Source of the DNA: Pseudomonadota bacterium
GTDB taxonomy: Bacteria > Pseudomonadota > Alphaproteobacteria > MPNO01 > UBA830
Direction of reading: 5' to 3'
NCBI GenBank assembly: GCA_036136335.1
Contig: JAYZQT010000056.1
Coordinates: forward strand, 25,797 to 89,796
DNA length: 64,000 nucleotides
Both the position numbers and the translations under genes were made by a program. Each line of letters begins with the position of its first letter. The stretch's first letter is position 1. The notes beneath the pieces were generated by a model, which was given only the letters and a program-made list of their open reading frames with translations, had not been told where the DNA came from and ran no database searches. Positions 5,659-54,038 of the stretch are shown here, in pieces.

Positions 5659-6732
5659 TCAGGGTTCGAACAGTCCTGGCCCGGGTTCACGGATAAGCTG
5701 CATGGTGTTGCATCGGATACCGCCACCATATTTATGAACCTCGTCATAGGGAATGGCTATAACCTCAACGCCCGCCGCTTCCAGCAGCGCGCGCGTCTTG
5801 ACCGCGCTCTCGTTCATGATGACCTGCCGGGGTTCGGTTGTGATGCCATTCGTCGGGTAAAGGTTGATCTCGTCGCGAGGGGCCTCAATCAGCTCATAGC
5901 CGAGTTCGTGTAAGTCGCGGATGGTCTGGTAATTGCACCAGGGCGGATAGATCATGGCTAGCCTGACATCAAGCGGCATGATCCACATGTCGGCATGCAT
6001 CCAACCGGGAACTTCCTCATGGTAGTCGTATAGCGGACCCGGACTGTGGGCTAGAAGCACCTTCTCGTATCCTGCTCGCCTCAGTACCGGCATGACCTGT
6101 TCCGCCCCCTCACGATTGCAGTCGGTCGACAGCATCAGCACGATAAAATCATCGGCCATCCGCACCGCGGCGCCGATCTCACAGACGCCGTGACCGTGCA
6201 CGGTATGCAGAATCGGGCAACCGAGATCCATTAAAGCCTTGGAAACGTATCGCGATCGTCCGCGCCAATAGGGCGGGGCCTCGCGCGGAATAATAGCGCC
6301 GCCGTTGATCACAAATCCGGCGGCCGCTGAAATCGAGCGTTTCATTGGCCCGTACGCCGACATGGGTGGATCGTCCGCCCACCGGATTTCGTGAACTGTC
6401 ACGCCCATAGACTCATATGTCTTGACCAGGCCCGCATGTTGTTCCTGCATCAGCTCCAGATTGGGGGTGATGCCGTTGAAGACGAAGAACGCGGAATCCT
6501 GTTCATAAAGCTCGAGCACTTCGCTTTCGGTTGGCTTGACCATTGCGACCTCGCGCAATTTCCCGATTCCCTGCGCGCCCCATGGCTTGCCCCAGATGCG
6601 CTCGAGCTCGTCGAGATAGGAGACCTCTGTGTGATAACGTTGATATTGAGGGACCCTGCCTTCTTCGTAGTAAGGAAAGTCGTCGAATGTCTCAGCGACC
6701 GACGGTTGATCGCTTTCATCTTCGTCCGTCAT
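5659..6732 (-). CDS. amidinotransferase / arginine deiminase / DDAH-fold (guanidino-group-modifying) enzyme
   Basis: The C-terminal YGGGIRCNT segment matches the conserved nucleophile-Cys context of this fold. ATGA overlap with the upstream amidohydrolase. Family-level call only. Confidence 0.65.
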   Translation of the reverse strand: MTDEDESDQPSVAETFDDFPYYEEGRVPQYQRYHTEVSYLDELERIWGKPWGAQGIGKLREVAMVKPTESEVLELYEQDSAFFVFNGITPNLELMQEQHAGLVKTYESMGVTVHEIRWADDPPMSAYGPMKRSISAAAGFVINGGAIIPREAPPYWRGRSRYVSKALMDLGCPILHTVHGHGVCEIGAAVRMADDFIVLMLSTDCNREGAEQVMPVLRRAGYEKVLLAHSPGPLYDYHEEVPGWMHADMWIMPLDVRLAMIYPPWCNYQTIRDLHELGYELIEAPRDEINLYPTNGITTEPRQVIMNESAVKTRALLEAAGVEVIAIPYDEVHKYGGGIRCNTMQLIREPGPGLFEP

Positions 6733-8261
6733 GTCGGGTCTCCTGTCCGCAGTGCGCCCCCCGGCGGAGTGTTGCCGAATTCGAGCGCGGCAATTCTGGA
6801 CCGCTGGTGAATTTCCTCAAAATAGGGTGCAAGGCGCATGGAGCCCGCTTTCATGACCGGCACGAAATCCCGGACATAGCGGTCTGCCGCCTCGCAAATT
6901 TCGCTGCGCAGGGCATCTTCGTCGATGTTTTGAATTTTACGATTTCGCATGACCACGCCACCCTCGACAATCACTGTCTGGACAGCCTCCGAGGTCACCG
7001 AAAACGCGAGTTGGCGTATGGGGTTTGTCAGGGGGACGAAGCCCCAGTGGTCGCGGTCGAGCAGGATCACATCAGCGCGCTTCCCGACCTCGAGGCTGCC
7101 GACTTCACGCTCCATCATCCCACTTTGGGCCCCCCCCATGGTTGCCATGCGGAAAACGTCCGCGCCCGCGACCCAGTCGCCGTGATGCGTGGCCGGGTTT
7201 TTGTGCATCAGGCTCGCCGCGCGGATTGCTTCGATCAGATCGGCGGTGTCGCTGGTCGCCAGGCCATCGGTGCCGAGCGCGACGTTAATGCCGGCATCGA
7301 GCAGCTTTCGTAATGGACAGATGCCGCTGCCAAGCTTCATGTTGGAAAGCGGGTTGTGCACGACCGAGCACCCATTGTCGGCCAGCAGACCGATGTCCCG
7401 GTCGTTCAGCCATATGCCGTGAACAATGGTCAGCCGCGGTGACAGGAAGCCAATGTCGTCGAGGTATTCGATCGCCGTTTTGCCCCATTGATCCTGGGCC
7501 TGAACGGCTTGCAGCCGGGTTTCCAACGTGTGGCTGTGCAGCGGAACGTCATGGCGGGCCGAAAGCTCGTTGATCTCCTCCATGAGCTTGATTGTGCAGC
7601 GCTGGGGTCCGCATGGCGCGAGGATGATGCGGATGCGGTCGTCATGGCCATGCCAGTTGTCGAACTGTAGACGAAACAGGTCGAGCTGAGCTGCGAAATC
7701 GGCTAATGGTAACGCATTAATTTCATGCTGTTCCACCGCCGGAATGATGTCCCGCGCATAGGGTACGCAGTCGAGCAGCGGTACGTCCCACATATCGACC
7801 GCGACCCAGGCGCGCAGTCCAATATCGGCATAGGCCCGAATCGCGGCATCCATCGCTCCAGGCGTCGCGGGTGGATGGACATAGTCGTCCTGAACCGTGG
7901 TCACGCCGGCTCGCACCGATTCGATCGCAGCGAGCATGGTGCGGAGATAATAATCGTGCTCGCTCAACAACGGGAACCCAAAGGGCGGATAGCTCTCACC
8001 GAGCCAGATTTCGAGCGGCAGATTATCGTAGACGCCCTGTTGGAACGCTTCGTTCGAATGGAGATGTGCGTTGATCAGCCCCGGCATGATGATCGAGCCC
8101 GAGGAATCAATCACCTCGCCGTCGTATCCTTCGCCGACGTCCGGGCCGATCGCTTCGATACGTCCGGCTTCGATAACGACGTCGGCGCGTGGCAATTCGG
8201 TCTCCACCGCGTCGCCAGTTACCACCCAGCCATTTTTGAGGATCAGCGCGTCATCCGCCAT
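6729..8261 (-). CDS. amidohydrolase-superfamily deaminase/chlorohydrolase-like enzyme
   Basis: MADDALILKNGWVVTGD...PGLINAHLHSNE (HxH metal-binding motif), with downstream HSHTLE and TDG segments typical of guanine/cytosine-deaminase-like amidohydrolases. I moved the start to Met 58 of the track ORF. That start overlaps the upstream stop by 11 nt. Confidence 0.8.
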   Translation of the reverse strand: MADDALILKNGWVVTGDAVETELPRADVVIEAGRIEAIGPDVGEGYDGEVIDSSGSIIMPGLINAHLHSNEAFQQGVYDNLPLEIWLGESYPPFGFPLLSEHDYYLRTMLAAIESVRAGVTTVQDDYVHPPATPGAMDAAIRAYADIGLRAWVAVDMWDVPLLDCVPYARDIIPAVEQHEINALPLADFAAQLDLFRLQFDNWHGHDDRIRIILAPCGPQRCTIKLMEEINELSARHDVPLHSHTLETRLQAVQAQDQWGKTAIEYLDDIGFLSPRLTIVHGIWLNDRDIGLLADNGCSVVHNPLSNMKLGSGICPLRKLLDAGINVALGTDGLATSDTADLIEAIRAASLMHKNPATHHGDWVAGADVFRMATMGGAQSGMMEREVGSLEVGKRADVILLDRDHWGFVPLTNPIRQLAFSVTSEAVQTVIVEGGVVMRNRKIQNIDEDALRSEICEAADRYVRDFVPVMKAGSMRLAPYFEEIHQRSRIAALEFGNTPPGGALRTGDPT

Positions 8262-10578
8262 CGGTTTTTTCGCGCAACGCGCGTAGAACGTTTTCGGACG
8301 ACATGGGCAGACGCCGTAACCGAATTCCGCTGGTATGTGCCAAGGCATTTGCGATGGCCGGCGCGATCCCGACAATTGGTGGCTCACCGATGCCCTTGGC
8401 CCCGAATGGGCCGGTCTCGTCGGGCTCTTCAATCAGAATGGTATTGATCTTTGGAGGAGACTCGACTGTTCCCGGAATTTTGTAATCCATCAGCGAGGGG
8501 TTCGCGAGTCGTCCAGTGTCCCAGACCATTTCTTCGTAAAGTGCGTATCCGATGCCCTGAACCACCCCCCCTTCGACCTGCCCGGCCACTGATGAGGGAT
8601 TTATCGCTTTGCCAATGTCATGGGCTGACCAGACTTCGAGCGGCGTAATCTTGCCGGTTGCTTCGTCCAGTTCGATCTCTACTGCCTGTGCGGCAAAGAT
8701 CCACGCCCCAATCTTGCCGAATGGGAAACCCTTGATGAAACCGCGTTTGGGATCGAAGCTTTCCCCATCAAATGCCAGTGAATTACTGCCAATTACCGGG
8801 CCACCCTCGACCCAGTGTGCAAATCCGGAAATCTCGCCAAAGGTAACTTTTGCTTCCGGAACACCGCTGATTCCGATTATTCCGCCAGGCCTCATTTCAA
8901 GATCTTCGGGTGCACACTCCATCATCGAGGCGGCGCGTTGTTTGAGCTGCTCAATAACAGAATCTGCAGCGGCCACCACAGCGCGCCCGGTCATGTAGGT
9001 CACCCGGCTGGCTGTGGTGCCCCAGTTATATGGAGAAGAATCGGTATCTGGGGTTGCGAGGCTGATTTTATCGACGTCGATGCCCAGCGCGCCCGCACAC
9101 ATCTGTACCAGGACCGTGTCTGATCCCTGCCCGTTGTCAACCGCACCTGTGTTCAGTACGGCAGTACCGTCTTCGAGAATCCGGATGATCGCGCCGGAGG
9201 TTAAAAGACCCGAAATATGGGGCATGCAAGCGATGCCGATGCTTCGGCGTTTGCCGTCGACGGGCGGTCCCAAGGCTGCCGCGCGGCGATTTTGCCAGTC
9301 GCTTGAATCACGTACCTGTGTCAGGCATTCACTCATCGCGTCATTAGAAGCCGCCAGACCACCAAGCCATTCTTCGTTTGGCCTCGCCGCATTTTTCAGC
9401 CGCAGGTCAATCGGATCCATGCCAATTTTGTCAGCAATTTCGTCTATCTGTGTTTCGCCCGCAATCGCCACCTGTGGGCCGCCGAAGCCTCGAAACGCTC
9501 CCGCCCGGAGTTTGTTGGTATAGACCGCCCGCGATTCTACCGACACATTTTGGATGTGGTACGGACCCCGGCAGAACAGCGCACAAATGCCCGCAACGCC
9601 GGGGCTGTCATCACCGTAGGCGCCTGCGTCAAGACGAATATCGACTTTTCGGGCGACCAACGTGCCGTCTTTCGTGGCTCCGGTCTTCATCCAAACCCTG
9701 GACGGATGCCGAGACCGGATCATCTCAAAGTCCTGCTCGCGGCTCAGGGTAAGTTTGACCGGGCGGTTTGCCTTGATGGTCAGGCCTACAACAATAGGCT
9801 GAATTGTCTGTTCCATCTTGCCGCCGAACGCGCCGCCCACCCGTGGGGTAACACAGCGTACTTTCGACATGGGCATATCAAGGGACTGTGCAATATTCGC
9901 CTGCAGGTGAAACACTGACTGATTGCCGGACCAGACGGTGACCTTGCCGTTAGCGTCAATATCTGCAAGCGCCGAGCAGGGTTCCATATATGTATGGCAC
10001 TGCGCCTGTGTCTCATATTCACCTTCGACGATTACGTCGCATTGCGCCCATGCGTTTTCCGCGTCACCTTCCTCGACCTCCATGATTGACATTACGTTGG
10101 GTGCGTGTTCGGATTCATAGGTCTTCAAGAGTTCTTCAAAATTGTCATGCACCATTGGGGCATCTTCCGCCATGGCCTGGTCAATCGACAGGACGGCGGG
10201 CAGTTCTTCATATTCGATTTCGATTAGCGCGACAGCGCGCCGTGCGGTCAGTTGATCGACCGCGGCAACGGCCGCTACCGGTTCGCCGATATAGCGCACT
10301 TTGCCTTTGGCAATAGCAGTTTCGTCGTGCACGAAGGGACCAATGTAATTGTACCCAATGTCGTCACCGGTGAAGGATGCGACGACGCCTGGAACTTCCA
10401 GCGCGGCGGAAACATCGCAGGATACAATACGCGCATGTGCGTAGGGGCTTTGCTGAACGGCTGCGTGCAGCATGCCAGGTCGCGATAGGTCGTCTGTGTA
10501 TTCCGCGCGGCCAGTGATTTTTTCTCGGGCTTCGAGGCGGGGCAGGTCCTGCCCCACAGGATTTTGATAAACGGTCAT
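8251..10578 (-). CDS. xanthine dehydrogenase family molybdopterin-binding large subunit
   Basis: 781-aa track ORF. Contains GAFRGFGGPQ and AKGIGEPP, typical of XDH / aldehyde-oxidoreductase-type Mo subunits. The start at 10578 gives an ATGA overlap with the 2Fe-2S subunit stop. Confidence 0.9.
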   Translation of the reverse strand: MTVYQNPVGQDLPRLEAREKITGRAEYTDDLSRPGMLHAAVQQSPYAHARIVSCDVSAALEVPGVVASFTGDDIGYNYIGPFVHDETAIAKGKVRYIGEPVAAVAAVDQLTARRAVALIEIEYEELPAVLSIDQAMAEDAPMVHDNFEELLKTYESEHAPNVMSIMEVEEGDAENAWAQCDVIVEGEYETQAQCHTYMEPCSALADIDANGKVTVWSGNQSVFHLQANIAQSLDMPMSKVRCVTPRVGGAFGGKMEQTIQPIVVGLTIKANRPVKLTLSREQDFEMIRSRHPSRVWMKTGATKDGTLVARKVDIRLDAGAYGDDSPGVAGICALFCRGPYHIQNVSVESRAVYTNKLRAGAFRGFGGPQVAIAGETQIDEIADKIGMDPIDLRLKNAARPNEEWLGGLAASNDAMSECLTQVRDSSDWQNRRAAALGPPVDGKRRSIGIACMPHISGLLTSGAIIRILEDGTAVLNTGAVDNGQGSDTVLVQMCAGALGIDVDKISLATPDTDSSPYNWGTTASRVTYMTGRAVVAAADSVIEQLKQRAASMMECAPEDLEMRPGGIIGISGVPEAKVTFGEISGFAHWVEGGPVIGSNSLAFDGESFDPKRGFIKGFPFGKIGAWIFAAQAVEIELDEATGKITPLEVWSAHDIGKAINPSSVAGQVEGGVVQGIGYALYEEMVWDTGRLANPSLMDYKIPGTVESPPKINTILIEEPDETGPFGAKGIGEPPIVGIAPAIANALAHTSGIRLRRLPMSSENVLRALREKTDGG

Positions 10579-11051
10579 TTCGGCTCCGTGCCGCACACCG
10601 AGCGAACAGCATCAATCACTTTTACATAGCCCGAACAACGGCACAGATTACCAGACAGACCTTCGCGGATCTCATCGTCCGACAGCTTTCTGTTGCTGGA
10701 AGCCAATGCTGTCGCTGCAATGATCATACCGGGTGTACAGAATCCGCACTGGGCGGCGCCACAATCCAGAAAGGCCTGCTGGACTGGCGACAACGTATCG
10801 TTTGATTCAATCCCTTCAATGGTTTTGATTTCCTTGCCCGTGCAATTGGCTGCGAGCGACAGGCATCCACGAACGATCTTTCCCTCGATCATCACGGTGC
10901 AGGCACCACAGACGCCCTGGTTGCACCCACGTTTTGTACCGGTGAGGTGCATTTCATCCCGCAGTACATGAAGCAGGGTATCGTTTGCGCGCACAAAGGC
11001 CTGCCGTATCTGGCCGTTTACCGATAGGCCAAGGGGTATTTTGTCGCTCAT
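10575..11051 (-). CDS. (2Fe-2S)-binding small subunit of the molybdoenzyme
   Basis: CNQGVCGACTV, QCGFCTPGM and NLCRCSGY cysteine clusters. Confidence 0.9.
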   Translation of the reverse strand: MSDKIPLGLSVNGQIRQAFVRANDTLLHVLRDEMHLTGTKRGCNQGVCGACTVMIEGKIVRGCLSLAANCTGKEIKTIEGIESNDTLSPVQQAFLDCGAAQCGFCTPGMIIAATALASSNRKLSDDEIREGLSGNLCRCSGYVKVIDAVRSVCGTEPK

Positions 11052-11902
11052 ACCTCTCCTTTCTGCGAATTACGGGCACGCGCCAACGCACGGGTGATCA
11101 GGACTGGTATAAGATTTAACCGGTATTCAGCGGTACCGCGAAAATCGTCTACAGGGTCAGCTGCCGCGATAATTTTTTCGGAGGCCAACGCAATCGTCTG
11201 GTCGGAAATTCCATCGACGCGCAACATGTTTTCCACCTCGATTGACCGGATAGGGGTCGGTGCGCAAGCGCCCACTGCAAGCCGTATATAATCGATGTTT
11301 CCTTGCCGTTCTTTCAGAACGACTGCCACCGACACAGTTGCGAAGTCCCCTTCGACACGGGCGAACTTTTCATAGGCAACCGCACCGTCTGGAGCTGGGG
11401 GAATAAGGACCGATGAGACCATTTCACCCTCTTGCAGCGCTGTCTCCAGGTAATCGACGAAGAATTCACCAGCCGGGATGTCCCGTTCGCCCTGTCCACC
11501 AGCGGTCCTTATTACGGCTTCAGCCGCAACCAGCGCTGCCGGATAATCTGCGGCGGAATCAGCATGCGCAATCGCGCCACCGATCGTTCCCATATTGCGG
11601 ATCGCAGGATGCCCTATCACGGACGCTGCCTCGGCGACGATGCGCTGTCCTTTATCGAAATCATTTGTTTCGGCGAGTGTGACGTGGTTTGTCATTGCGC
11701 CGATTACTGCGGTACCGTCGGAGGTCAGAGATATGCCTTTCAGGGTCTCGACATCGCGCAGGCTGACAAGCGCAGTTGGAGCAAGCAGGTCCGCATTCAT
11801 CATCGCAACAAGCGTGGCACCGCCGGCAAGGCAGCGAGCATCCTGGTCTTCGGCCAATAGCGCCACAACCTGATCAACCGTGCGTGGGTGGTGCAGCTTC
11901 AC
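11048..11902 (-). CDS. FAD-binding medium subunit (CoxM-like) of the molybdoenzyme
   Basis: The size (284 aa), the AGGATLV and NMGTIGG segments and its position directly upstream of the 2Fe-2S subunit (overlapping junction) match the FAD_binding_5 family. Confidence 0.9.
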   Translation of the reverse strand: MKLHHPRTVDQVVALLAEDQDARCLAGGATLVAMMNADLLAPTALVSLRDVETLKGISLTSDGTAVIGAMTNHVTLAETNDFDKGQRIVAEAASVIGHPAIRNMGTIGGAIAHADSAADYPAALVAAEAVIRTAGGQGERDIPAGEFFVDYLETALQEGEMVSSVLIPPAPDGAVAYEKFARVEGDFATVSVAVVLKERQGNIDYIRLAVGACAPTPIRSIEVENMLRVDGISDQTIALASEKIIAAADPVDDFRGTAEYRLNLIPVLITRALARARNSQKGEV

Positions 11903-13497: not shown

Positions 13498-13602
13498 CAC
13501 GCTGACCCAAACCTGTCAATAGTGTATAGGCTTCACTTTTGGTGTTGGCATTGGGAACTTCGTCGTACCCAATTTGTGGGCCGGTGATTGCGCGGGAAAA
13601 TC

Positions 13603-14217
13603 ATGGTTCAGGTAAAAAAAGTAGCAATACGCGAAGCCATTACCCGAAGTGCTCTCGGCCTTTTTTCAGAAAAGGGGTATTCCAGAACAACTATTGCCCA
13701 GATTGCCGAGCGCGCTGAAATTACGACATCTAATTTTTATCGATACTACGATTCCAAACTTGATGTGTTTTTCGCCGTATTTGGCCCCTGGCTGCGTTCC
13801 CACCTTGATGCGCTTGAACAGAGAGTTATGGGAATAAGTGATCCACGCGAAAGACTCAGAGAGGTTTTTATTGGTTTGTGGTGCGATATTCCGCGCGCTG
13901 ATAACGGGTTCAATAATAACATCGTGGAAGCCCTGGCTGCGTTCTCACCGGAGCAGCGATATTCAAGGTCGCTTTTGATCGAATCGGAACGGCGGGTATG
14001 GGGAATGGTTGCCGGCTGCGTTCCGGAGAATCGCTGGCAGTATATCAATGACAGCAGGCTGTCACACCTGATGTTTATGGCGGGCGATGGTTTTGCGCTG
14101 AATGTAAAGCTAGGCGGACCGTCTCCGCTTATTGGCCCCATAATTGAAATGATGTGCACCCTTATACTAGGTGAAGATTGCCGCAAACTACCCGAGATCG
14201 AAGGAGAGTTTCAATGA
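13603..14217 (+). CDS. TetR/AcrR family transcriptional regulator
   Basis: N-terminal HTH region ALGLFSEKGYSRTTIAQIAERAEITTSNFYRYYDSK. The first ATG is at 13603. The track ORF begins at a TTG at 13588. Confidence 0.85.
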   Translation: MVQVKKVAIREAITRSALGLFSEKGYSRTTIAQIAERAEITTSNFYRYYDSKLDVFFAVFGPWLRSHLDALEQRVMGISDPRERLREVFIGLWCDIPRADNGFNNNIVEALAAFSPEQRYSRSLLIESERRVWGMVAGCVPENRWQYINDSRLSHLMFMAGDGFALNVKLGGPSPLIGPIIEMMCTLILGEDCRKLPEIEGEFQ

Positions 14218-14978
14218 CCGAGAATGTTCTTGAAGGGGTCGCTCTGGTAACCGGTGCCGGTAGTGGAATAGCGCGAGCGCTTGCGCTACAGCTCGGTACT
14301 GCTGGTGCGGTTGTTGCCGTTGCCGATGTAAACCAGAAAACTGCTGCAGAAACTGCCAACGCTATCAACGCCGCAGGCGGTACATCTGCACCCTTCGCCT
14401 TGGATGTTGCCGACTCGCGTGCCGTGGACGATGTGGTTAACGTGATCGAGCGCGATCTCGGCCCGGTCACCCGTCTGGCAAACGTGGCGGGGGTATTTTC
14501 GACGTCTGCGCTCGCTGACATCTCCGACGATCAGTGGGCGCAGATCCTGTCTGTTCACCTTAACGGGACCTTTCACCTCTGCAGGCGGCTCGTACCTGCC
14601 ATGGCAAGTCGTGGTGGTGGCGCGGTTGTTAACACTTCGTCCATCTTCGCACTCAGGGGGCAGTCAGAAGCGTCCCACTACGCCGCCGCAAAGGGGGCAA
14701 TTATCGGATTTTCAAAATCGATAGCCCGCGAAGTAGGTGATGCGAATGTTCGGGTCAATGTGGTAGCACCTGGCCCGGTGGATACACCCTTTTTTGCCCA
14801 AGGCCTGTCCGGTGAGCAACTTGCCCGAGTGCGCGAGGAACGGGCCCGAATCATTCCTCTAGGCAAAATTGGGAGTGCAGAAGAGGTGGCCAGCGTAATA
14901 CTTTTTTTTCTCGGAGAGGGCAGCACACATATCACAGGTCAGGTCATTCCCGTCGATGGAGGCGAGGTGATGCGCTAG
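14214..14978 (+). CDS. SDR family oxidoreductase
   Basis: TGAGSGIA cofactor motif, NVAG, and the catalytic YAAAK (YxxxK). ATGA overlap with the TetR stop. Confidence 0.9.
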   Translation: MTENVLEGVALVTGAGSGIARALALQLGTAGAVVAVADVNQKTAAETANAINAAGGTSAPFALDVADSRAVDDVVNVIERDLGPVTRLANVAGVFSTSALADISDDQWAQILSVHLNGTFHLCRRLVPAMASRGGGAVVNTSSIFALRGQSEASHYAAAKGAIIGFSKSIAREVGDANVRVNVVAPGPVDTPFFAQGLSGEQLARVREERARIIPLGKIGSAEEVASVILFFLGEGSTHITGQVIPVDGGEVMR

Positions 14979-16507: not shown

Positions 16508-16715
16508 AATTGTAGAAAGTCTCTCCAGAGCAGTCAAAATGGAATTCGTGCGGCGCTCCTTTGCGACCTTCGGCATATGGTCTGTAAAAACCGAAAATTT
16601 TGTAATTGAGCTGCGCTCGATCAGAGTAGGTAATCCCGATGAAAAGGGAGAGTTTGTATGAAGGCTTAAACTTGTTAGTCTCCGAGCCCCGAATAATTTA
16701 AAAGGAGTACAGTGC

Positions 16716-17396
16716 ATGCCGGGTACTGTCAGCGAAAGTCCCGTTACATTGGAAGAATATGCTGCGATGGATATGCAGGAGCGGCAAGCACTATGGCTTC
16801 AGATCTCCGATATATCCGAGGATGAATTCAAGGCACATATGGCGGGGGAGAAGGCCCGCGAGGCCATGGTTCCGAAAATCGGTGCCGAGGCACCGAATTT
16901 TGTCGCGGATGTTCTTGGTGCGAACCGTCAGAGAACTGGCGAACAGGTTCGGTTGTCGGACCTACGAGGTAAACCAGTCGGCATAGCATTCGGGTCTTTC
17001 ACGTGACCGCCATTTCGTGGGAAGGCCGTGCGCCTTAACGAACTATATGCCAAATACAAAGACCAGGTTCACTTCTACATCATATACATTCGCGAAGCGC
17101 ATCCCGCTGCAGGTTGGCAGGTGCCAAACAACCTGATCGAAAATGTAATTTTTGATGAACCCACCACTGATGAAGAACGCACCGAGGTAGCGGCCGCATG
17201 TCAAATCAGTCTGGGCCTTGATATGCCAATGCTGGTTGATGCAATCGATAACGATATTGACAAACAGTATGTCGGACTCCCGATGCGGCAGTTCCTGATT
17301 AACGCCGACGGAATGATCGTGTATGCGGGACAAAAAGGACCGTTTGGGTGGGATGACCAGGCTTTTGAAGTGGAACTTAAAAAACTAATTTTCTGA
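16716..17396 (+). CDS. iodothyronine deiodinase-like thioredoxin-fold selenoprotein (TGA 17004-17006 read as selenocysteine)
   Basis: Track ORFs 16716-17006 and 17028-17396 share one frame and are separated only by one TGA. Read-through gives IAFGSFT-U-PPFRGKAVRLNELYAKYKDQVHFYIIYIREAHPAAGW. This matches the deiodinase signature FGS(A/C)T-U-PPF and the YI.EAHP.DGW box. An AAGGAG ribosome binding site precedes the ATG at 16716. Confidence 0.8.
17014..17042 (+). promoter_or_regulatory. candidate bacterial SECIS stem-loop
   Basis: UUCGU(17014-18) pairs with ACGAA(17038-42). AAGGC(17022-26) pairs with GCCUU(17032-36). There is an internal GGG/A asymmetry and a 5-nt apical loop CGUGC. The stem starts 8 nt after the UGA. 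Confidence 0.55.
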
Positions 17397-19144: not shown

Positions 19145-20251
19145 TTATTGCAGGGCCTTCTTGCGGACCCCGGCTTTTTCAAGTCGGGGCAAAACCTCGT
19201 CCCTGAAAAGTGGAAAATGCTCTACATAGTTGGCAAAACCCATTGCGAAGGCATCTATTCCCTGCCTGTGGAGACACAGCAGCAGTTCTGTAACGTCATC
19301 GGGGTCACCGACGATCGGGTAGGCTCCATTGCCACCCGCGGCACGCTGGTTGAGGTTTTTGATCAGGTTTGGTGGCAGGTTGTCCAAGTGCCCTCTGGTC
19401 AATCGACCCATAATGAGGTTGTCCGCGGCCTTTTTATCTGCCATCTCGACAGCATAATATTCGTGATATTCCTGTGCCTCTTTTCGCGTCGGACGGCAAA
19501 CGACGTAACAATTGGTGAAAACCCCTATTGTACGCCCATAGTTGCGGGCCATATTTTTCAACCGGGCGATTTCGGTGCCTATATCCTGGATTTCTGAGTT
19601 GATCCCGGTGAACATCATGTCTGAATTCCGGGCAGCAAAATTGCGCCCTGTCTCCGAGCTTCCGGCGCTAACTATCATGGGGCGTTTTCTGGAGTAAGGC
19701 TTTGGCTTTGCAAGGACACCCTTCACCGAATAGAACTCGCCTTGGAAGTCAAAAGGCTTTGTCTCTGACCAGGCACGGGTCATGATTTCAATCCATTCCT
19801 GACCCTGGTCATACCGGCGATCGTGTTCGTTCAACCTGACGCCAGCCATATCAAATTCTTTCTGATTCCAACCGCAGACAATGTTCAGTCCAAAGCGGCC
19901 CTGACCAATTTGGTCTGCAGTCACCATTTGTTTTGCAGCAACGACCGGGTTGAACAACGCCACATGAACGGTTCCAAACGCCATGATGTTTTTTGTGGAT
20001 GCAAGGATACCTGCTGCCCAGCTTAGAGTTTCAAGTACACCGCCATTATGATCAGTTTCACCTCCGTAGCCGCGCCAGCGTCCGAGAGGTAAAAGAAAAT
20101 CCAGGCCCGCCTTGTCCGCGAGTCGTGCGGCTGCAAGGTTTTCCGCCCATGTACCTTCCCAACGTTCCGGAACCAGTGTCGCCGAAAGACCACCCGAACA
20201 GTTCAGGCCGAAGAACCCCAGTTTGAGTTTATTTAGATCAAAAGAGCGCAC
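19145..20251 (-). CDS. LLM-class (luciferase-like) flavin-dependent monooxygenase, RutA/SfnG-like
   Basis: FGLNIVCGWNQKEF and overall resemblance to RutA-type LLM enzymes. My preferred start is the GTG at 20251, 8 nt after the upstream stop. The ATG at 20332 would overlap the upstream gene by 74 nt. Confidence 0.8.
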   Translation of the reverse strand: MRSFDLNKLKLGFFGLNCSGGLSATLVPERWEGTWAENLAAARLADKAGLDFLLPLGRWRGYGGETDHNGGVLETLSWAAGILASTKNIMAFGTVHVALFNPVVAAKQMVTADQIGQGRFGLNIVCGWNQKEFDMAGVRLNEHDRRYDQGQEWIEIMTRAWSETKPFDFQGEFYSVKGVLAKPKPYSRKRPMIVSAGSSETGRNFAARNSDMMFTGINSEIQDIGTEIARLKNMARNYGRTIGVFTNCYVVCRPTRKEAQEYHEYYAVEMADKKAADNLIMGRLTRGHLDNLPPNLIKNLNQRAAGGNGAYPIVGDPDDVTELLLCLHRQGIDAFAMGFANYVEHFPLFRDEVLPRLEKAGVRKKALQ

Positions 20252-20258
20252 GCGTTTC

Positions 20259-21230
20259 TCAATATGTACGGTTGTACATTTCGCGCAGATGGGCTTCGAC
20301 GGTAGTCGGCGGATATTTCGGATTTTCACCATCTTTCAGACAACATTCCAGAGTCACTACCTTGTGGGCGAGGTTGCCATTATAAAAAAATGGTACGGAA
20401 TATCGTTCCTTGCCAGACATATTGATTACACGATGTAATGTTGAGCGATAGGTATCGTTGGTCCATCTCGACATCATGTCGGCGAGGTTGATCACATAGG
20501 CATTGGGGATAGGTGGCGCAGATATCCAAATATCGTCCTTACCCAGAACCTCCAGGCCCCCATTGGCGTCCTGCATCAACATAGTGATGCCCCCAAAATC
20601 CGTGTGTGCCCCGCAGCCTTTCTCGTTTGGGCGCGGATTGGCCGGTTGCGGTGGGTAGTGCAACAGCTTCAGAGCGGTGAGAGGTTCATGACAGAATGCC
20701 GTGAAATAGTTATCCGGTAGTCCCAGTGACAGTGCGATACCGCTCATAAGCGTCTTTCCAAGCGACAGCATGTCAACATAATACCGCATCATGGTCTTCT
20801 CAAAACCAGGAAGCCCCTCTGGCCACTGGTTAGGGCCTAGGTTGAAACTCCCATGTCTGAGGCGCGGATGATCAGCAGGAATTTCTTCTCCGATGTAAAG
20901 TCCTTCCTTGAGGTCCGGCGGACTGCCGTCTTCAAGTGTCTGCCCGCCTAGTGGCTCATAACCTCGATTATGAGGAGAAAGTGACATGTCAATGGCGCGC
21001 TTATGGTTTTCCGGGAGCAGAAAAAATGCGGCTGCTTGCGAAAACACATTTGCCTGCAGCTCGGGATCGATACCATGGCCAACAATGTACATAAAACCAA
21101 GATTATGGCACGCCTCTCTCATATCATCTGCTACTGATTGGCGGGCGCTTTCGTTTGTGCCTCTCAGGGGCGACATGTCGATGACGGGCAGGCTGGCATC
21201 CGAACGCTGTCCATTACTTGGCTTGGCCAT
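20259..21230 (-). CDS. 2-oxoglutarate/Fe(II)-dependent oxygenase (isopenicillin N synthase-like)
   Basis: LPVIDMSPL N-terminal pattern. HTD facial-triad motif in CGAHTDFGGITML, the distal His in STLHRV, and RYSVPFF. I chose the start at Met 23 of the track ORF. Confidence 0.85.
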   Translation of the reverse strand: MAKPSNGQRSDASLPVIDMSPLRGTNESARQSVADDMREACHNLGFMYIVGHGIDPELQANVFSQAAAFFLLPENHKRAIDMSLSPHNRGYEPLGGQTLEDGSPPDLKEGLYIGEEIPADHPRLRHGSFNLGPNQWPEGLPGFEKTMMRYYVDMLSLGKTLMSGIALSLGLPDNYFTAFCHEPLTALKLLHYPPQPANPRPNEKGCGAHTDFGGITMLMQDANGGLEVLGKDDIWISAPPIPNAYVINLADMMSRWTNDTYRSTLHRVINMSGKERYSVPFFYNGNLAHKVVTLECCLKDGENPKYPPTTVEAHLREMYNRTY

Positions 21231-24366: not shown

Positions 24367-26034
24367 ATGGACGGCTTTGCCGGTAAGCGCACATACCGCG
24401 ATCTTCAGCAACATATTGAAGAGCTTAAGGATCGAGATCTGCTTTATGTTATTGACGAGCCTGTTAACAAGGACACTGAAATGTCGCCTCTGGTCCGCTG
24501 GCAATTTCGAGGCGGGTTACGTGAAGAGGAGCGTAAGGCGTTTCTTTTCACTAACATTACGGATTCCAGAAATCGAGTGTACAACATACCGGTTGTGATT
24601 GGTGCGCTGGCGGCAAACCAGGATATCTACGCTACTGGCATGGGCTGCAACGTGGAGGGGATCGCTGGCAAGTGGGAAAATGCGATTGCCAATCCTATTG
24701 CGCCGCGGCTGGTAAATGACGCACCCTGTCATGACGTAATCATTGAGGGCGAAGAGCTGTTGAGCGAAGACGGTGGGCTTATCCATCTGCCTATTCCCTT
24801 GTCGACCCCCGGTTTTGATTCGTCCCCAACCCTGGCGGCCACCAATGTAATTACCCGTCACCCCAAAACCGGCACGCAGAATATGGGTACTTACCGCGCA
24901 GGACTCAAATCCTCTAACCGGCTGGTTGTGAGGATGGCAACCCGTGTCGGTGGCGCGGAGGGTTATCTGCACTGGAAAACGCAAAAGGAACGAGGTGAAA
25001 AGTTACCCTGCGCCATTGTTGTTGGCTGTCCGCCGTACGTCGCCTTTATGGGTCCACAGAAGCTTCCGGCAGGAGTGGAAGAGTTGCATGTTGCGGGTGG
25101 TCTGGCGGGAGAACCGATCAATGTTGTTCGCGCCCGAACCGTCGATCTGTTGGTGCCTGCGGAGGCGGAGGTGGTCATTGAGGGTTTTGTAGATACCGAG
25201 CTGCTGGAACCGGAGGGGCCATTTGGAGAAAGCCATGGGCATGTCGCCTTGGAAGAGTTGAACCTCCCAATGCAGGTGACCGCAATTACACGCCGCGAGC
25301 ATGCGATCATCCCCTCCTACATCTCACAGGTTGCACCCTCCGAAAGTTCAGTTATCAAGCGTGTTGCCTATGAGCCGTTGTTTAAGGCGCATTTGCACGA
25401 CCATCTTGGGATTAAAGGAGTTAAAAAAGTTCAACTGCACGAGCCCCTGACAGGCCTGCTCCGTGTAACGATCATATCGCTTGATCCCGAGACCCCACGT
25501 ACAGAGGTGTGGCGTGCGCTTTATGGAGCGGCGAGCTTCAAGGCTGATTGTGGCAAGATAACCATCGCAGTTAATGAAGATATTGATGTTGATAACGCTG
25601 ATGCAATCTTGTGGGCAATGGCCTATCGCCTGAACCCGTCGGAGGACGTAAATATTTTACGGCATCGTGGACAGGGTCATGGTCCAAAGCGGGAAACACA
25701 TGGTGAAGAAGATTCGACCCTTCTGATTGACGCCACAATGAAGGCCCCCATGCCCCCTCTGGCGCTACCCACCAAGCCTTACATGGAGGCTGGAAAAGTA
25801 CTTTGGGAAAAACTGGGGCTACCCGCCCTTCGTCCAGAGTCCCCGTGGCACGGGTATTCCCTTGGGGACTGGTCCGAAGTCTGGACAGACGCCGCGGAAC
25901 GCGCAACAGCTGGCGCCTGGCCGGAAAATGGTCGCCGGACCTTGCAGCGGCAGGTCCCCGCCGACGTAACGCCGGAAACCTCCGTTCGGGACGTAGAGGA
26001 CGGTTGGGAAGACGAACTGGAGTGGAAGAAATAA
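24367..26034 (+). CDS. UbiD-family (prenylated-FMN-dependent) decarboxylase
   Basis: N-terminus YRDLQQHIEELKDRDLLYVIDEPVNKDTE and length are typical of UbiD. It has a C-terminal extension of about 60 aa relative to typical UbiD length. Confidence 0.85.
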   Translation: MDGFAGKRTYRDLQQHIEELKDRDLLYVIDEPVNKDTEMSPLVRWQFRGGLREEERKAFLFTNITDSRNRVYNIPVVIGALAANQDIYATGMGCNVEGIAGKWENAIANPIAPRLVNDAPCHDVIIEGEELLSEDGGLIHLPIPLSTPGFDSSPTLAATNVITRHPKTGTQNMGTYRAGLKSSNRLVVRMATRVGGAEGYLHWKTQKERGEKLPCAIVVGCPPYVAFMGPQKLPAGVEELHVAGGLAGEPINVVRARTVDLLVPAEAEVVIEGFVDTELLEPEGPFGESHGHVALEELNLPMQVTAITRREHAIIPSYISQVAPSESSVIKRVAYEPLFKAHLHDHLGIKGVKKVQLHEPLTGLLRVTIISLDPETPRTEVWRALYGAASFKADCGKITIAVNEDIDVDNADAILWAMAYRLNPSEDVNILRHRGQGHGPKRETHGEEDSTLLIDATMKAPMPPLALPTKPYMEAGKVLWEKLGLPALRPESPWHGYSLGDWSEVWTDAAERATAGAWPENGRRTLQRQVPADVTPETSVRDVEDGWEDELEWKK

Positions 26035-49023: not shown

Positions 49024-49518
49024 ATGGAAAGCTTAATATTCGCCCTCGTTATTGGTCTCACGGTATATTTGTTCATGCGACGCCTACGATTGGTAAAGCG
49101 GAAAAAGCAATTGGAAGCCAGTGAGGCGCAAACCAGTGGTTCACAAAGCGAACAGGGCAGCATGCCCCGGATCGGACAATCCGGAACCATTACGCGGGAA
49201 CAGATCAAACTGCTTAAAGAAAGCGATTTCGAACCATCCCGGCTCTGGAGCAAGGAAGAGGCGCAACTGATACTGGATACCGTCACCTATCTGCGTTCAG
49301 TAATTTATATTGTAACCAACGAGGATGATCCTCCAATTGAGGTTCAGAACAATGTTCTGAAATTTATACTGACAGACGATAGTTTGCGGGAACATGTCTA
49401 TGAGTGGGGGTTAAATCGCCCGCGTGACGAGTCCGCCATGTTAAGTCAAAACCTCGAACGTGATGACTGTTTTGAGCAGGTCAAAATGGCTGTTCTGGAA
49501 CAATGGGAGGCTCAGTGA
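49024..49518 (+). CDS. hypothetical membrane-anchored protein
   Basis: N-terminal TM segment MESLIFALVIGLTVYLF followed by a basic stretch. I recognise no family. The stop overlaps the queA GTG (GTGA). Confidence 0.45.
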   Translation: MESLIFALVIGLTVYLFMRRLRLVKRKKQLEASEAQTSGSQSEQGSMPRIGQSGTITREQIKLLKESDFEPSRLWSKEEAQLILDTVTYLRSVIYIVTNEDDPPIEVQNNVLKFILTDDSLREHVYEWGLNRPRDESAMLSQNLERDDCFEQVKMAVLEQWEAQ

Positions 49519-50591
49519 TAGAGGCGATTAAGGTCACGGATACACTGAATGCAGATCTGCGAACCGATGACTTTGATTTTGATCTGCCGATCAAAAATAT
49601 AGCGAAAGAACCAGCGCGGCCTCGAGGGTCAGCACGAATGCTTGAGGTTGAGCATCAACTAAACGATCTGAATGTTTCAGACCTGCCGAGGATGTTAGAT
49701 TCTGGCGACACGCTTGTCCTCAATAACACCAGGGTCATACCAGCACGACTTCGCGGCACGCGGCGTGGCATAAAGATCGAGGTAACACTTCACAAATCGG
49801 TCATTGGTGGTCTTTGGCGTGCATTTGCGCGCCCAGCCCGCAAACTGTCGCGGGGTGATGTAATCTGTTTTGCGGCTGATTTCGAGGCGCGTGTATGCGA
49901 AAAAGGGGAAGGGGGCGAGGTACTTTTGTCGTTCCAGGGTTCCCGTGACTTTCGAATGGCTCTTGCCGAACATGGGGAAATTCCAATACCACCATACATT
50001 CCGCGTTCCGACGGCGCTATCGAAGCCGACAAGGAAGACTATCAGACGGTTTATGCAAGCCGTGAGGGCGCGGTCGCTGCACCTACCGCTGGGCTCCATT
50101 TCAGCGAAGCTTTGCTGGATGATATCCGTGGCGCTGGTGTAAAAATCGAGATGGTGACCCTCCATGTAGGGGCTGGTACGTTTTTGCCTGTGAAGGCGGA
50201 CCGGATTGCCCATCACCGCATGCACAGCGAATGGGGTGAGATTTCGCCACACGTTGCAGATTGTATCAACGCGACCCGACAGACCGGTAACAGGGTTGTC
50301 GCCGCTGGGACCACCGTATTGCGCCTGCTTGAAGCGGCCGCCGAGCCCGGGGGAAGACTAAAACCCTATTGCGGCGATACGGACATCTTTATAACCCCCG
50401 GATACAGGTTCCGGGTGGTTGATGCGCTACTGACCAACTTTCACCTTCCACGTTCCACCCTGTTCATGCTGGTAGCGGCATTCTCTGGCCTGGAGCGTAT
50501 GAAAGCTGCTTACGCACATGCGATTGATGAGGGGTACCGTTTCTATTCGTATGGTGATTCCAGTTTTCTGCATCGTTTGGATGGACCATGA
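49515..50591 (+). CDS. queA: S-adenosylmethionine:tRNA ribosyltransferase-isomerase
   Basis: DDFDFDLP and [10 protein letters not shown] motifs. The start is uncertain: GTG at 49515 (GTGA overlap) or ATG at 49503. Confidence 0.9.
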
Positions 50592-51715
50592 CCGGTTTTG
50601 GCTTGAAGGTACTTCAAACCGATGGAAACGCGAGACGTGGGCGACTTGAAACCGCTCACGGGATCGTGGATACACCCGCGTTTATGCCTGTTGGGACCGC
50701 CGCGACCATCAAAGGAATGACCTCCGACGCTGTTGCCGGCACCGGCGCCCAGGTTGTCCTCGCAAATACATATCATCTGATGCTGCGTCCAGGAGAGAAG
50801 ACGATCAAGCGTCTGGGCGGCCTTCATCGCTTCATGGACTGGCCAGGCCCGATTCTGACAGATTCAGGCGGCTTCCAGGTGATGTCGTTAGCCGATCTTC
50901 GTAAACTGGATGATGATGGCGTATGTTTCCGGTCCCATATTGACGGCGCGAAATACCAACTCACGCCTGAGCGCGCTGTGAACATACAGAAGCAGCTTGA
51001 TTCAACAATTACAATGGTGCTGGATGAGTGCACCGGCCACGGGGTCGAAAAAAAACAGGCAGCTGAGTCCATGCGGCTATCGATGCGGTGGGCAGACCGC
51101 AGCCGCGATGCCTTTGAACAACGGTCGGGTTACGGCGTTTTTGGAATTGTCCAGGGTAGTATATTTCCCGATCTGAGGGTGGAATCGGTTACAGCACTTA
51201 CGTCGATGGGGTTTGATGGTTATGCGGTTGGTGGACTGGCGGTTGGAGAAAGCCAGGAAGTAATGTTTTCCATGCTTGATGTCACGGTGCCGGCGCTTCC
51301 CCAAACTCGCCCGCGCTATCTCATGGGAGTTGGCACCCCCCGGGACATCGTCGGCGCCGTGCAACGCGGGATCGATATGTTTGACTGTGTCTTGCCTACG
51401 CGGTCGGGTCGCACGGGGCAGGCATTTACCCGTCGCGGCACCGTAAATATAAGAAACGCGCGTCACGCCGAAGACCCTCGTCCACTCGATCCTGACAGCA
51501 ACTACCCGACAGTGAGCGGCCTCAGCCGCGGCTATCTTCATCATCTCTTCAAGGCAAAAGAAATGCTTGGACCAATTCTTCTGACCCTGCACAACCTGCA
51601 TTACTATCAGGAGATAATGCAGAAAGTCCGACATGCCATCGAAACCGCATCCTTACATGAGTTCACGGTAAACTTTGACAGGCAGCAGGCCTCTGGCGAC
51701 ATTGAGGCGCTGTGA
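50588..51715 (+). CDS. tgt: tRNA-guanine transglycosylase
   Basis: [17 protein letters not shown] and the zinc-site region. ATGA overlap with queA. Confidence 0.95.
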
Positions 51716-52893
51716 AAGTGAACGGCCTACCTGATCCACGTTCGTCAATCAGAAAGGTCGCAATTTCACAAGGCTTTGATGCAGTGGGTTTTTCCGAACC
51801 TCAAAATGGCAATGCTGCCAAACGGTTGACCGAATTTCTGGCCGATGGCTTTCATGGCGACATGGGGTGGATGGAGGCGACAGAAGATCGACGCGCGACA
51901 CCACAAAATCTATGGCCTGAAGCCAAAAGCGTAATAGTGGTGGGGACCAACTACGGCCCTGATGAGGACCCATTGTCTTTACTTGAGTTTCCAACGCGCG
52001 GTGCAGTTTCGGCTTATGCGCGCGGTCGCGATTATCATGACGTGATGAAATCAAAACTGCGGCAGGTCGCGTGCTGTATAGCGGACGCATGGGATTGTGA
52101 AGTCAAATATTTTGTGGACACAGCTCCAGTGCTCGAAAAACCCCTCGCGCAACTTGCTGGTGTCGGATGGCAGGGTAAACACACAAACCTGGTATCGCAG
52201 GATTTTGGTTCATGGCTGTTTCTTGGAGAGATCTTTACGACCCTAGAACTTCGCCCCGATAAGATTCACGAAGATCGCTGCGGGAGCTGCCAGAACTGTC
52301 TGGATGTATGTCCGACCAACGCGTTCCCCCAACCATACCGTCTTGATGCCCGGCGCTGTATCTCTTATCTGACCATTGAGCATAAAGGTCACATTGAGGC
52401 AGAATTTCGTGCGGCGATTGGAAACCGGATCTATGGCTGTGATGACTGTCTCGCGGTGTGTCCGTGGAACAAATTTGCAAAACCCACACCACATCAGGCG
52501 CTACGCTCCCACATTCACCTCACACGCCCACTGCTGAGCGATTTTGCACTGCTCAATGATGATGATTTTCGTAACGTGTTTTCCGGTTCGCCGATAAAAC
52601 GCCTTGGCCGCGACCGATTTGTTCGCAATGTGCTGATCGCGATCGGGAATAGCGGAGATACCGGTCTTTCCGAAACATCGCAGAAGCTTTTGAACGATGC
52701 CTCTCCGCTCGTGCGGGCGATGGCGGTTTGGTCCCTGTCGCAACTGCTGGAGAGAGGACATTTTGAAAAGCTCCGAGACCGTTATTTGCCTGTTGAAGAC
52801 GATCTTTATGTTGTGGCGGAATGGGGCGGTAAAATAATTTCTGGAGACGGGGCGATCGGGTGTCAGGTGAAATGGAAATATTCCTGTGATTGA
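51712..52893 (+). CDS. queG: epoxyqueuosine reductase
   Basis: Two 4Fe-4S motifs, [12 protein letters not shown] and [11 protein letters not shown], and the FHGDMGWM segment. GTGA overlap with tgt. Confidence 0.9.
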
Positions 52894-53042: not shown

Positions 53043-54038
53043 ATGTCAGGAAAATACTGGGACGAGATCGAGCCAGACCGCCGCATTTCAGTTGCGCCGA
53101 TGATGAATAGAACCGATCGCCACGAACGATATTTTTTGCGACTGATATCCCGGTCAGTGTTGCTATATACCGAGATGATCACGACCGGCGCCATCCTTCA
53201 TGGCGACACGGCTAGGTTTCTAGAGTTTGACCCGCGGGAGAAACCCCTTGCCCTTCAACTGGGGGGCAGCAAAGCTCCAGAACTGGCCCGCTGCGCGGCA
53301 ATCGCAGAATTACGGGGGTATGATGAGGTAAACCTGAATGTGGGATGCCCGAGTGATCGCGTTCAAAACGCCCGCTTTGGAGCTTGCCTTATGAAGGAGC
53401 CCCAAACTGTCGCGGCCTGCGTAGCCGCGATGATCGGCGCTACTCAAATACCCGTGACAGTGAAGACACGGATTGGTGTCGATGACCAGGATTCCTGGAA
53501 TGATCTTTACCGTTTTATTGACGTGGTCGGGGCTGCCGGTTGCGATACATTTATTATTCACGCGAGGAAAGCTTGGCTGCAGGGCCTCAGTCCCAGGCAA
53601 AACCGTGAAATACCCCCCCTGTCTTATAAAACCGTCTACAAACTAAAGCAGGAACGGCCTGACCTAAACATCATAATAAATGGGGGGATTACCAGCGTCG
53701 CCGAAACCAATGGTCATTTGGCCAGGGTTGATGGGGTCATGATTGGCCGGGCAGTATATGAAAACCCCTGGTTTCTCGCGGAACTGGAGCAATCGGTTTA
53801 TGGAGGCCCCCCTCCCGAAGACCGTCGCAAGGTCCTTGATGAGTATATAACGTATATGGAGCGGCAGATGGGTCTTGGGGTGCCCCTGTATGCGATGGCA
53901 CGTCACGCGCTCGGACTGTTTCAGGGCCAGCGGGGCGCTCGCGCATGGAGGAGACACATAAGTGAGAACGGGCCACGCCGCGGTGTTGGGTGCGAAATTG
54001 TGCGTCAGGCAGCAGAACAGGTTGTGCAGGCCGCCTGA
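53043..54038 (+). CDS. dusA: tRNA-dihydrouridine synthase A
   Basis: VAPMMNRTDRHERYF, NLNVGCPS and HARKA motifs. Confidence 0.9.
   Translation: MSGKYWDEIEPDRRISVAPMMNRTDRHERYFLRLISRSVLLYTEMITTGAILHGDTARFLEFDPREKPLALQLGGSKAPELARCAAIAELRGYDEVNLNVGCPSDRVQNARFGACLMKEPQTVAACVAAMIGATQIPVTVKTRIGVDDQDSWNDLYRFIDVVGAAGCDTFIIHARKAWLQGLSPRQNREIPPLSYKTVYKLKQERPDLNIIINGGITSVAETNGHLARVDGVMIGRAVYENPWFLAELEQSVYGGPPPEDRRKVLDEYITYMERQMGLGVPLYAMARHALGLFQGQRGARAWRRHISENGPRRGVGCEIVRQAAEQVVQAA

Follow-up and report, generated by a model that had tools for sequence, protein, structure and literature searches.

A candidate selenoprotein of the bacterial deiodinase-like family, with an in-frame UGA and a covarying coding-region hairpin

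Bacterial selenoproteins related to the animal iodothyronine deiodinases (Dio) have been on record since 2005, and we describe here a probable further member, encoded at positions 16716-17396 of a 64,000-nucleotide stretch (hereafter the window) of contig JAYZQT010000056.1 from an alphaproteobacterial assembly (GCA_036136335.1). The family, named 'deiodinase-like protein (Pfam00837)', was first found in Sargasso Sea DNA as four sequences with selenocysteine (Sec) and six with Cys, together with a bacterial selenocysteine insertion sequence (SECIS), and its discoverers suggested a redox function (Zhang, Fomenko and Gladyshev, 2005; PMC1088965). It appeared again in 2008 in the Global Ocean Sampling (GOS) data, with 22 Sec sequences (PMC2398784), and reviews of 2022 and 2026 place it among the families of unknown function (PMC9312934; PMC13188914). 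The initial annotation of the window, made from the letters alone, had pointed to such proteins in marine surveys, and these reports bear it out. Both reviews list the family motif as UxxC, while the GOS table has no motif; UxxC does not fit the members considered here, which read U-P-P-F/Y or U-G-P-F without a Cys at +3, the Cys of the window protein lying 65 residues downstream.

The locus shares with this family the PF00837 domain, an in-frame UGA that pairs with Cys in homologues, a putative downstream SECIS with a small G-containing loop, a marine alphaproteobacterial setting and routine mis-annotation as fragments, and differs from it in nothing essential. The animal enzymes DIO1-3 (Dio3, 4TR3; Dio2, 9H48) are about 24-26% identical to the window protein and have in common with it a thioredoxin fold with the Dio-type insertion and the motifs FGSxT-U-PPF and YIxEAHPxxGW. 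In contrast to them, the window protein has a charged helical N-terminal extension instead of a membrane anchor, a bacterial coding-region hairpin rather than a eukaryotic SECIS in the 3' untranslated region, and an invariant Cys162 in a preceding helix with Cys168 and Cys239 missing; thyroid hormone is not an expected substrate. Atypical 2-Cys peroxiredoxins (Prx), GPx5-type peroxidases and ResA/TlpA share the thioredoxin/Prx-like fold with the nucleophile at the N-terminus of helix alpha-1, and a resolving Cys that lies far from the nucleophile, in a helix farther along the chain. They give weak Pfam, NCBIfam and Protein Data Bank (PDB) matches, but the Prx PxxxTxxC and ResA/TlpA CxxC motifs are missing here and the matches fall short of the deiodinase ones by 15 or more orders of magnitude.

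A single reading frame and its conserved TGA

Translation of 16716-17396 gives one forward-strand frame of 226 codons, from ATG 16716 to a terminal TGA at 17394-17396, with the TGA at 17004-17006 as its sole internal stop. A mechanical list of open reading frames (ORFs) has two entries in its place, one of 96 aa at 16716-17006 and one of 122 aa with a GTG start at 17028-17396, and a 96 + 124 aa split is found in all orthologous loci, which begin at the equivalent position with MPGTV.ESPVTLEEY. Around the internal TGA the sequence reads ...GKPVGIAFGSFT-U-PPFRGKAVRLNELYAKYKDQVHFYIIYIREAHPAAGWQVP..., that is, GKPVGIAFGSFT, a stop and PPFRG, and YIREAHPAAGW follows 27 codons after it. These data agree with the initial annotation, which had held that the two ORFs share a frame interrupted only by this TGA, that the UGA stands at the Sec position of a deiodinase active site (FGSFT-U-PPF aligns to FGSCT-U-PPF of Dio3 and FGSAT-U-PPF of Dio2), that a deiodinase box follows (written there as YI.EAHP.DGW) and that gene callers split such genes, as they do here and in nearly all database orthologues. 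We put at about 0.88 the probability that one gene occupies 16716-17396 and encodes a soluble selenoprotein with a thioredoxin fold that belongs to the bacterial deiodinase-like family.

The conservation of the TGA is far beyond chance. DNA of relatives was taken from metagenome and genome collections, and the motif was located in 167 of 170 sources; TGA stands at 168/168 homologous sites in these 167 independent sources, metagenomes and metagenome-assembled genomes (MAGs) alike. The best 160 loci returned, from which the phyletic spread was drawn, all have TGA and come from phyla of both soil and sea; in size and in breadth the family far exceeds the 4 and 22 sequences of the 2005 and 2008 reports. 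Carriers include Rhodospirillales and other alphaproteobacterial MAGs, Hyphomicrobiaceae, MAGs assigned to Devosia and Beijerinckia, Burkholderiales (Betaproteobacteria), Myxococcota, Binatia, Acidobacteriota, Chloroflexota, Planctomycetota and Gaiellales (Actinomycetota). The closest, the alphaproteobacterial MAG CAZOHS01, reaches 79% identity at best in genomes; one carrier is a MAG assigned to Devosia equisanguinis (L102), and no isolate genome was among the carriers found.

Most of what searches with the protein brought up were half-length fragments bounded on one side by the TGA codon, the N-terminal ones ending in ...FGS(F/Y)T. Distant full-length homologues (30-42% identity; P0012, P0028, P0031 and others) align a Cys to the UGA, as the initial annotation had proposed to check, and the codon in the distant homologues L308-L310 is TGT or TGC. 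No orthologue has a sense codon other than one for Cys or Sec at this position, a lone Trp (P0001) being an artefact discussed below. Across 38 close orthologues the amino acids are kept on both sides of the TGA while synonymous codons vary freely, and therefore both halves are translated.

Several variants of the family were also seen. A Dehalococcoidia MAG (L142) carries two tandem deiodinase-like Sec genes, with TGA at 2391 and 3160 and FGSYT-U-PPF in each. A Sec form with Gly, FGSFT-U-GPF, occurs in L082/L083 (TGA at 3187), and the Cys homologues P0029 and P0032 have N-terminal EF-hand domains and the motif FG(N/S)FTCGPF. A 171-aa database protein (P0041), in which the deiodinase-like segment after the SECIS is fused to ABC-transporter ATPase-like sequence, is probably a chimeric assembly.

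A hairpin under RNA-level selection and linked selenocysteine genes

The bacterial SECIS has been described as a stem-loop closely 3' of the UGA whose apical loop is small and includes a G (PMC1088965). A 15-nt hairpin of this kind, AAGGC-CGUGC-GCCUU, lies at 17022-17036, beginning 15 nt past the UGA, and its covariation, the suppression of synonymous change across it and its loop G, present in all of 141 unique sequences, place it within that description. In 89 distinct sequences with a CG(U/G)G(C/A) loop in common, pairing is kept in 98.2% of cases over the five positions of the stem; compensatory double changes occur at three of the five, and six pair types are found at one of them. None of 500 shuffles reached the covariation score, which beats all slid controls too. 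Some of the compensations alter amino acids, as in AAG-GCC...CGC-CUU to CAU-GCC...CGC-AUG. Close orthologues hardly vary their codon choice across +6 to +11 (K-A-V-R-L-N), where the major codon has a fraction of 0.97, against 0.62 (0.86 at most) for 113 other conserved codons. The hairpin is thus under selection at the RNA level.

Other clades have different hairpins in the same place, for example GCCCA-GGC-UGGGC and CGGGA-GGU-UCCCG. The loop is of 3-5 nt in almost all of the 141 unique sequences, and the hairpin stands 17 or 20 nt past the UGA in 122 of them; mean folding energy along the gene has its minimum at +12. None of the Cys-form loci, a very small sample of three, has a typical small G-loop hairpin. 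The archetype for comparison is the SECIS of Escherichia coli fdhF, whose sequence we verified in 5419 E. coli genomes. It too is a hairpin directly 3' of the UGA within the coding region, and its loop G-U falls at nt 23-24 (GGUC loop, nt 22-25) against nt 25-26 here, counted from the U of UGA. The window hairpin differs in its supported stem of 5 bp, its 5-nt loop CGUGC and the lack of an evident bulged U; its lower helix is without covariation support, and the likeness is one of sequence geometry.

The genes for selenocysteine insertion adjoin the deiodinase-like gene in several relatives. On the Hyphomicrobiaceae MAG chromosome OZ244980.1 (L003), which encodes a 72% identical orthologue, tRNA-Sec (6331-6426), SelB (6461-8395) and SelA (8392-9831) are encoded on the minus strand, immediately adjacent to the deiodinase-like gene (10001-10672) and pointing away from it. 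In two marine Rhodospirillales MAGs (L128, 3001-6620; L129, 3-3589), the deiodinase-like gene, selA and selB follow one another on one strand with gaps of 45 and 8 nt, in what looks like an operon coupling the selenoprotein to its own insertion machinery. The Devosia-assigned MAG has selA and selB 1.4 kb downstream of its deiodinase-like gene, and a SelA search found the protein in at least 18 further MAG assemblies that carry the gene, CAZOHS01 among them. From a UGA and a hairpin that are both conserved, and from the sel genes found linked to the gene, we infer that SelB would bind the hairpin and that UGA 17004-17006 is decoded as selenocysteine. By analogy with fdhF, the hairpin would act as the SECIS during translation and recruit the SelB-GTP-Sec-tRNA(Sec) complex to the ribosome.

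Family membership, catalytic residues and possible chemistry

Scored with U replaced by C, the joined 226-aa protein reaches 85.1 bits (E=5.9e-24) against Pfam T4_deiodinase (PF00837), well over the cut-off of 27, across profile positions 56-233 of 237, which answers the test that the initial annotation had suggested for its family assignment. It scores 162.7 bits against NCBIfam NF038285 (deiodinase_rel), under the curated cut-off of 250, over model positions 172-338 of 347 only; it belongs to a different subfamily, because the N-terminal half of that model is missing from it. A family profile run against all PDB sequences gave mouse Dio3 (4TR3) at 4e-32 and Dio2 (9H48) at 1e-31, with ResA as the next family at 3e-14. 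Structure was modelled for the 79% identical orthologue P0001 rather than for the exact window protein (AlphaFold, predicted local distance difference test score 88.8), and the best PDB structure matches of this model in Foldseek were Dio2 (template modelling score 0.81) and Dio3 (0.70), then ResA/TlpA and peroxiredoxins. The same model predicts three helices in the N-terminal extension (12-16, 20-31 and 35-51). The protein is probably cytoplasmic, because its N-terminal 50 residues are charged and helical, with no hydrophobic segment in the sequence that could serve as a membrane anchor.

Residue conservation was counted over 154 distinct Sec forms. S94, U97, P99, Y124, I125, R126, E127, A128, H129, C162 and P189 are invariant, and F92, G93, T96, W134 and R155 nearly so. 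In the alignment to Dio3, S94 corresponds to Ser167, T96 to Thr169, U97 to Sec170, Y124 to Tyr197, E127 to Glu200, H129 to His202, W134 to Trp207 and R155 to Arg225, residues that in Dio3 form a network anchoring the Dio loop to the active site (PMC7506546). The protein has a single cysteine, Cys162, which the orthologue's model puts in helix 152-166, a position comparable to that of the resolving Cys92 of the atypical peroxidase PtGPX5. Among Cys-type homologues, six with FGSCTC (P0031, P0034-36, P0038-39), which have a Cys at -2 as do Dio1 and Dio3, lack an equivalent of Cys162, whereas six with F, Y or I at -2 (P0012, P0028, P0029, P0032, P0037, P0040) possess one. This pattern suggests two alternative resolving-cysteine solutions, and its strict alternation supports a resolving role for Cys162, whose invariance in turn suggests a Sec97-Cys162 redox cycle.

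In such a cycle, Sec97 would sit at the start of helix alpha-1, held by a Dio-type network of Tyr124, Glu127, His129, Trp134 and Arg155, and its selenolate would attack an electrophilic atom of a small substrate, for which a hydroperoxide oxygen or an aryl-halide halogen could serve. Cys162 might then resolve the Se-OH or Se-X adduct so formed to a Sec97-Cys162 selenenylsulfide, which a thioredoxin-type reductant would reduce. Several points count against this part of our interpretation. The whole chemistry of Sec97 and Cys162 is one that we infer. Dio3 His219 is replaced by Pro149, kept in 152/154 sequences, and Dio3 Arg275 (Lys in Dio2) by Lys207, which is not conserved; Dio3 Cys239 is unmatched, and Cys168 is likewise without an equivalent. 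As to the substrate, a rough division would give a peroxide-type compound a minority share, an organohalide a slightly smaller one, and the remainder, the largest of the three, to another redox substrate.

Two more specific proposals about function can be set against these data. The first, which we regard as possible while falling well short of probable, is that the protein is a peroxiredoxin-like hydroperoxide reductase with an antioxidant role and that its likeness to deiodinases reflects common ancestry only. It would account for the match to AhpC-TSA (PF00578; 34.5 bits, cut-off 26), with Redoxin slightly under its cut-off, for the Prx structures among the fold matches and for a Sec with a distal resolving Cys, which resembles atypical 2-Cys Prx and GPx5; most bacterial selenoproteins are, moreover, redox enzymes. 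However, the peroxidatic signature PxxxT/SxxC is missing, as FGSFT-U puts Thr directly before Sec, Prx and ResA match much less strongly than Dio does, and neither a peroxide-stress regulator nor a thioredoxin reductase is a conserved neighbour.

The second, which we find rather unlikely, is a selenium-dependent reductive dehalogenase that would take iodine or bromine off phenolic organohalogens by the selenium-halogen chemistry of the animal deiodinases. The protein is much closer to Dio2 and Dio3 than to any other thioredoxin-fold family, and little or no variation is seen in the Dio-specific Ser/Thr-Sec motif or in the Tyr-x-x-Glu-x-His...Trp...Arg network. Flanking genes of a catabolic oxidoreductase kind (TetR, short-chain dehydrogenase/reductase (SDR), luciferase-like monooxygenase, 2-oxoglutarate oxygenase) fit the proposal as well, the first three families also flanking the gene in other loci. 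On the other hand, Pro149 and Lys207 replace the two Dio3 residues implicated in substrate binding, no neighbour specific to dehalogenation is kept across loci, the families on the flanks are very common ones, and thyroid hormones are not expected in bacteria (PMC1088965). A broader form of this idea, to which we give less credit still, is that selenium-dependent reductive dehalogenation of natural iodo- or bromophenolics is the true activity of the family as a whole, which would then be the prokaryotic ancestor of thyroid-hormone deiodinase chemistry and, in Alphaproteobacteria of the L128/L129 type, perhaps the main reason that the Sec machinery is kept.

Alternative readings of the UGA and the surroundings of the gene

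Several results weigh against a selenoprotein at this locus. The 64-kb window is without any tRNA, and no selA, selB or selD was found among the 30 ORFs scanned with Pfam. The hairpin is short, at 5 bp, and Rfam at gathering thresholds gave no match in the window. Single-sequence folding of the region after the UGA is no stabler than shuffled sequence (z = +0.74, +0.22, -0.30); the fdhF SECIS reaches a z of only -1.28 when folded in this way, and single-sequence stability is distinctive for neither. A lower stem (17014-17018 with 17038-17042), seen in the single-sequence fold, was rejected as part of the supported element: it is 69% paired and has zero double changes. In the literature library searched, we found no experimental study of any bacterial deiodinase-like member.

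Readthrough of the UGA without selenocysteine, whether because an alternative code assigns it to Trp or Gly, because a near-cognate tRNA inserts Trp or Cys, or because the gene is decaying in a lineage that has lost the Sec machinery, keeps a slim chance. The evidence for Sec machinery comes from relatives rather than from the window's own genome, and the database entry P0001 shows Trp at the codon. That Trp is an artefact of a gene call (L227:230-931) in which TGA was translated with genetic code 4 and which also overran the true stop; the resulting 7-residue C-terminal extension is a second type of mis-annotation besides splitting. The window gene itself ends in TGA, and UGA is therefore a normal stop in the source organism. 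The Tgt protein encoded in the window is closest to those of Rhodospirillales MAGs (at most 68% identity), and alphaproteobacteria generally use the standard genetic code. The window hairpin is identical to the consensus in relatives with selA, selB and selC, and so there is no sign of decay.

That the TGA is a real stop, through a pseudogene, a sequencing error or two small genes (a 96-aa N-terminal and a 122-aa C-terminal fragment starting at GTG 17028), is scarcely credible: the two-ORF calls here and in nearly all database orthologues and a window lacking sel genes would fit it, but the same TGA recurs at every homologous site over many phyla with purifying selection on both halves, the break falls exactly at the catalytic residue where homologues have Cys, and the supposed GTG start lies inside the loop of the covarying hairpin. 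A selenoprotein gene thus remains our preferred reading of 16716-17396, and its features are collected in Table 1.

Table 1. Features of the deiodinase-like locus (window coordinates)
Feature	Positions	Strand	Basis or remark
Shine-Dalgarno-like AGGAG	16703..16707	+	8 nt 5' of ATG; read from sequence
Probable deiodinase-like selenoprotein gene, complete	16716..17396	+	one frame, PF00837 85.1 bits, Dio3/Dio2 profile matches
Charged N-terminal extension, ~50 aa, bacteria-specific, in place of the animal membrane anchor	16716..16865	+	kept in orthologues
Active-site motif FGSFT-U-PPF, residues 92-100	16989..17015	+	aligned to Dio3, Dio2
UGA codon, probable selenocysteine (Sec97)	17004..17006	+	TGA at 168/168 homologous sites; Cys in distant homologues
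Hairpin AAGGC/GCCUU, putative SECIS, apical loop CGUGC (17027-17031)	17022..17036	+	pairing, covariation, synonymous suppression
Possible lower stem extending the hairpin (17014-17018 with 17038-17042), weakly supported	17014..17042	+	single-sequence fold
YIREAHPAAGW box, residues 124-134	17085..17117	+	= Dio3 Tyr197, Glu200, His202, Trp207
TGT codon of Cys162, candidate resolving residue	17199..17201	+	invariant in 154/154 Sec forms

Inside the N-terminal part of the gene, a terminator-like hairpin with a T-run (16879-16896) is probably due to chance; the count of such elements is not above that in shuffled sequence. A scan of the window for ORF pairs joined by TGA gave no other credible selenoprotein candidate. 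Clustering of neighbours over about 160 loci found no consistent partner gene. The top 'cluster' proved to be the gene's own C-terminal half and another an antisense shadow ORF, and both were discarded; SDR and luciferase-like genes, which belong to very common families, recur in only 12-16 of the roughly 160 loci. In the window, TetR, SDR and luciferase-like genes flank the gene at 13588-14978 and 19145-20332, and the product of a neighbouring 490-aa gene had no exact match among recorded proteins. Around the nearest Cys-type homologue, P0012 (L308:2117-6693), a same-strand cluster comprises MarR, DUF2141, the deiodinase-like gene, DsbA, an Fe-S protein, an SDR and a luciferase-like monooxygenase, with a TetR gene upstream.

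Farther away, the window holds a contiguous queuosine cluster at 49503-52893 (queA, 49503-50591; tgt, 50588-51715; a queG-like epoxyqueuosine reductase gene, 51712-52893), after which comes a Dus-family gene (53043-54038). Molybdenum hydroxylases of the xanthine/CO dehydrogenase family are encoded at 8251-11902 (-), 55603-57972 (+) and 59267-61609 (+); Pfam confirms the large subunits at 55603-57972 and 59267-61609 and the FAD subunit at 11048-11902, and the 781-aa ORF at 8251-10596 is assigned from its size and position only. Together with a UbiD-like decarboxylase gene (24367-26034), these molybdenum hydroxylases suggest a catabolically versatile alphaproteobacterium.

The gene described here is a further member of a family known since 2005 and is not novel in kind. 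What it adds is modest: a minimal SECIS supported by covariation, an invariant Cys162 that alternates with a Cys at -2, sel genes (selA, selB, selC) linked to the gene, and carriers over a phyletic range far wider than the marine samples of the first reports. For annotation it is a clean case of a selenoprotein split or mistranslated by standard callers, almost every database relative being a fragment. No prokaryotic family stands closer to the thyroid-hormone deiodinases than the bacterial deiodinase-like one, yet it has gone two decades without an assigned function. The minimal SECIS, the candidate resolving Cys162, a soluble architecture that should lend itself to expression and, in several genomes, the physical proximity of selA, selB and selC now provide testable handles on the family.

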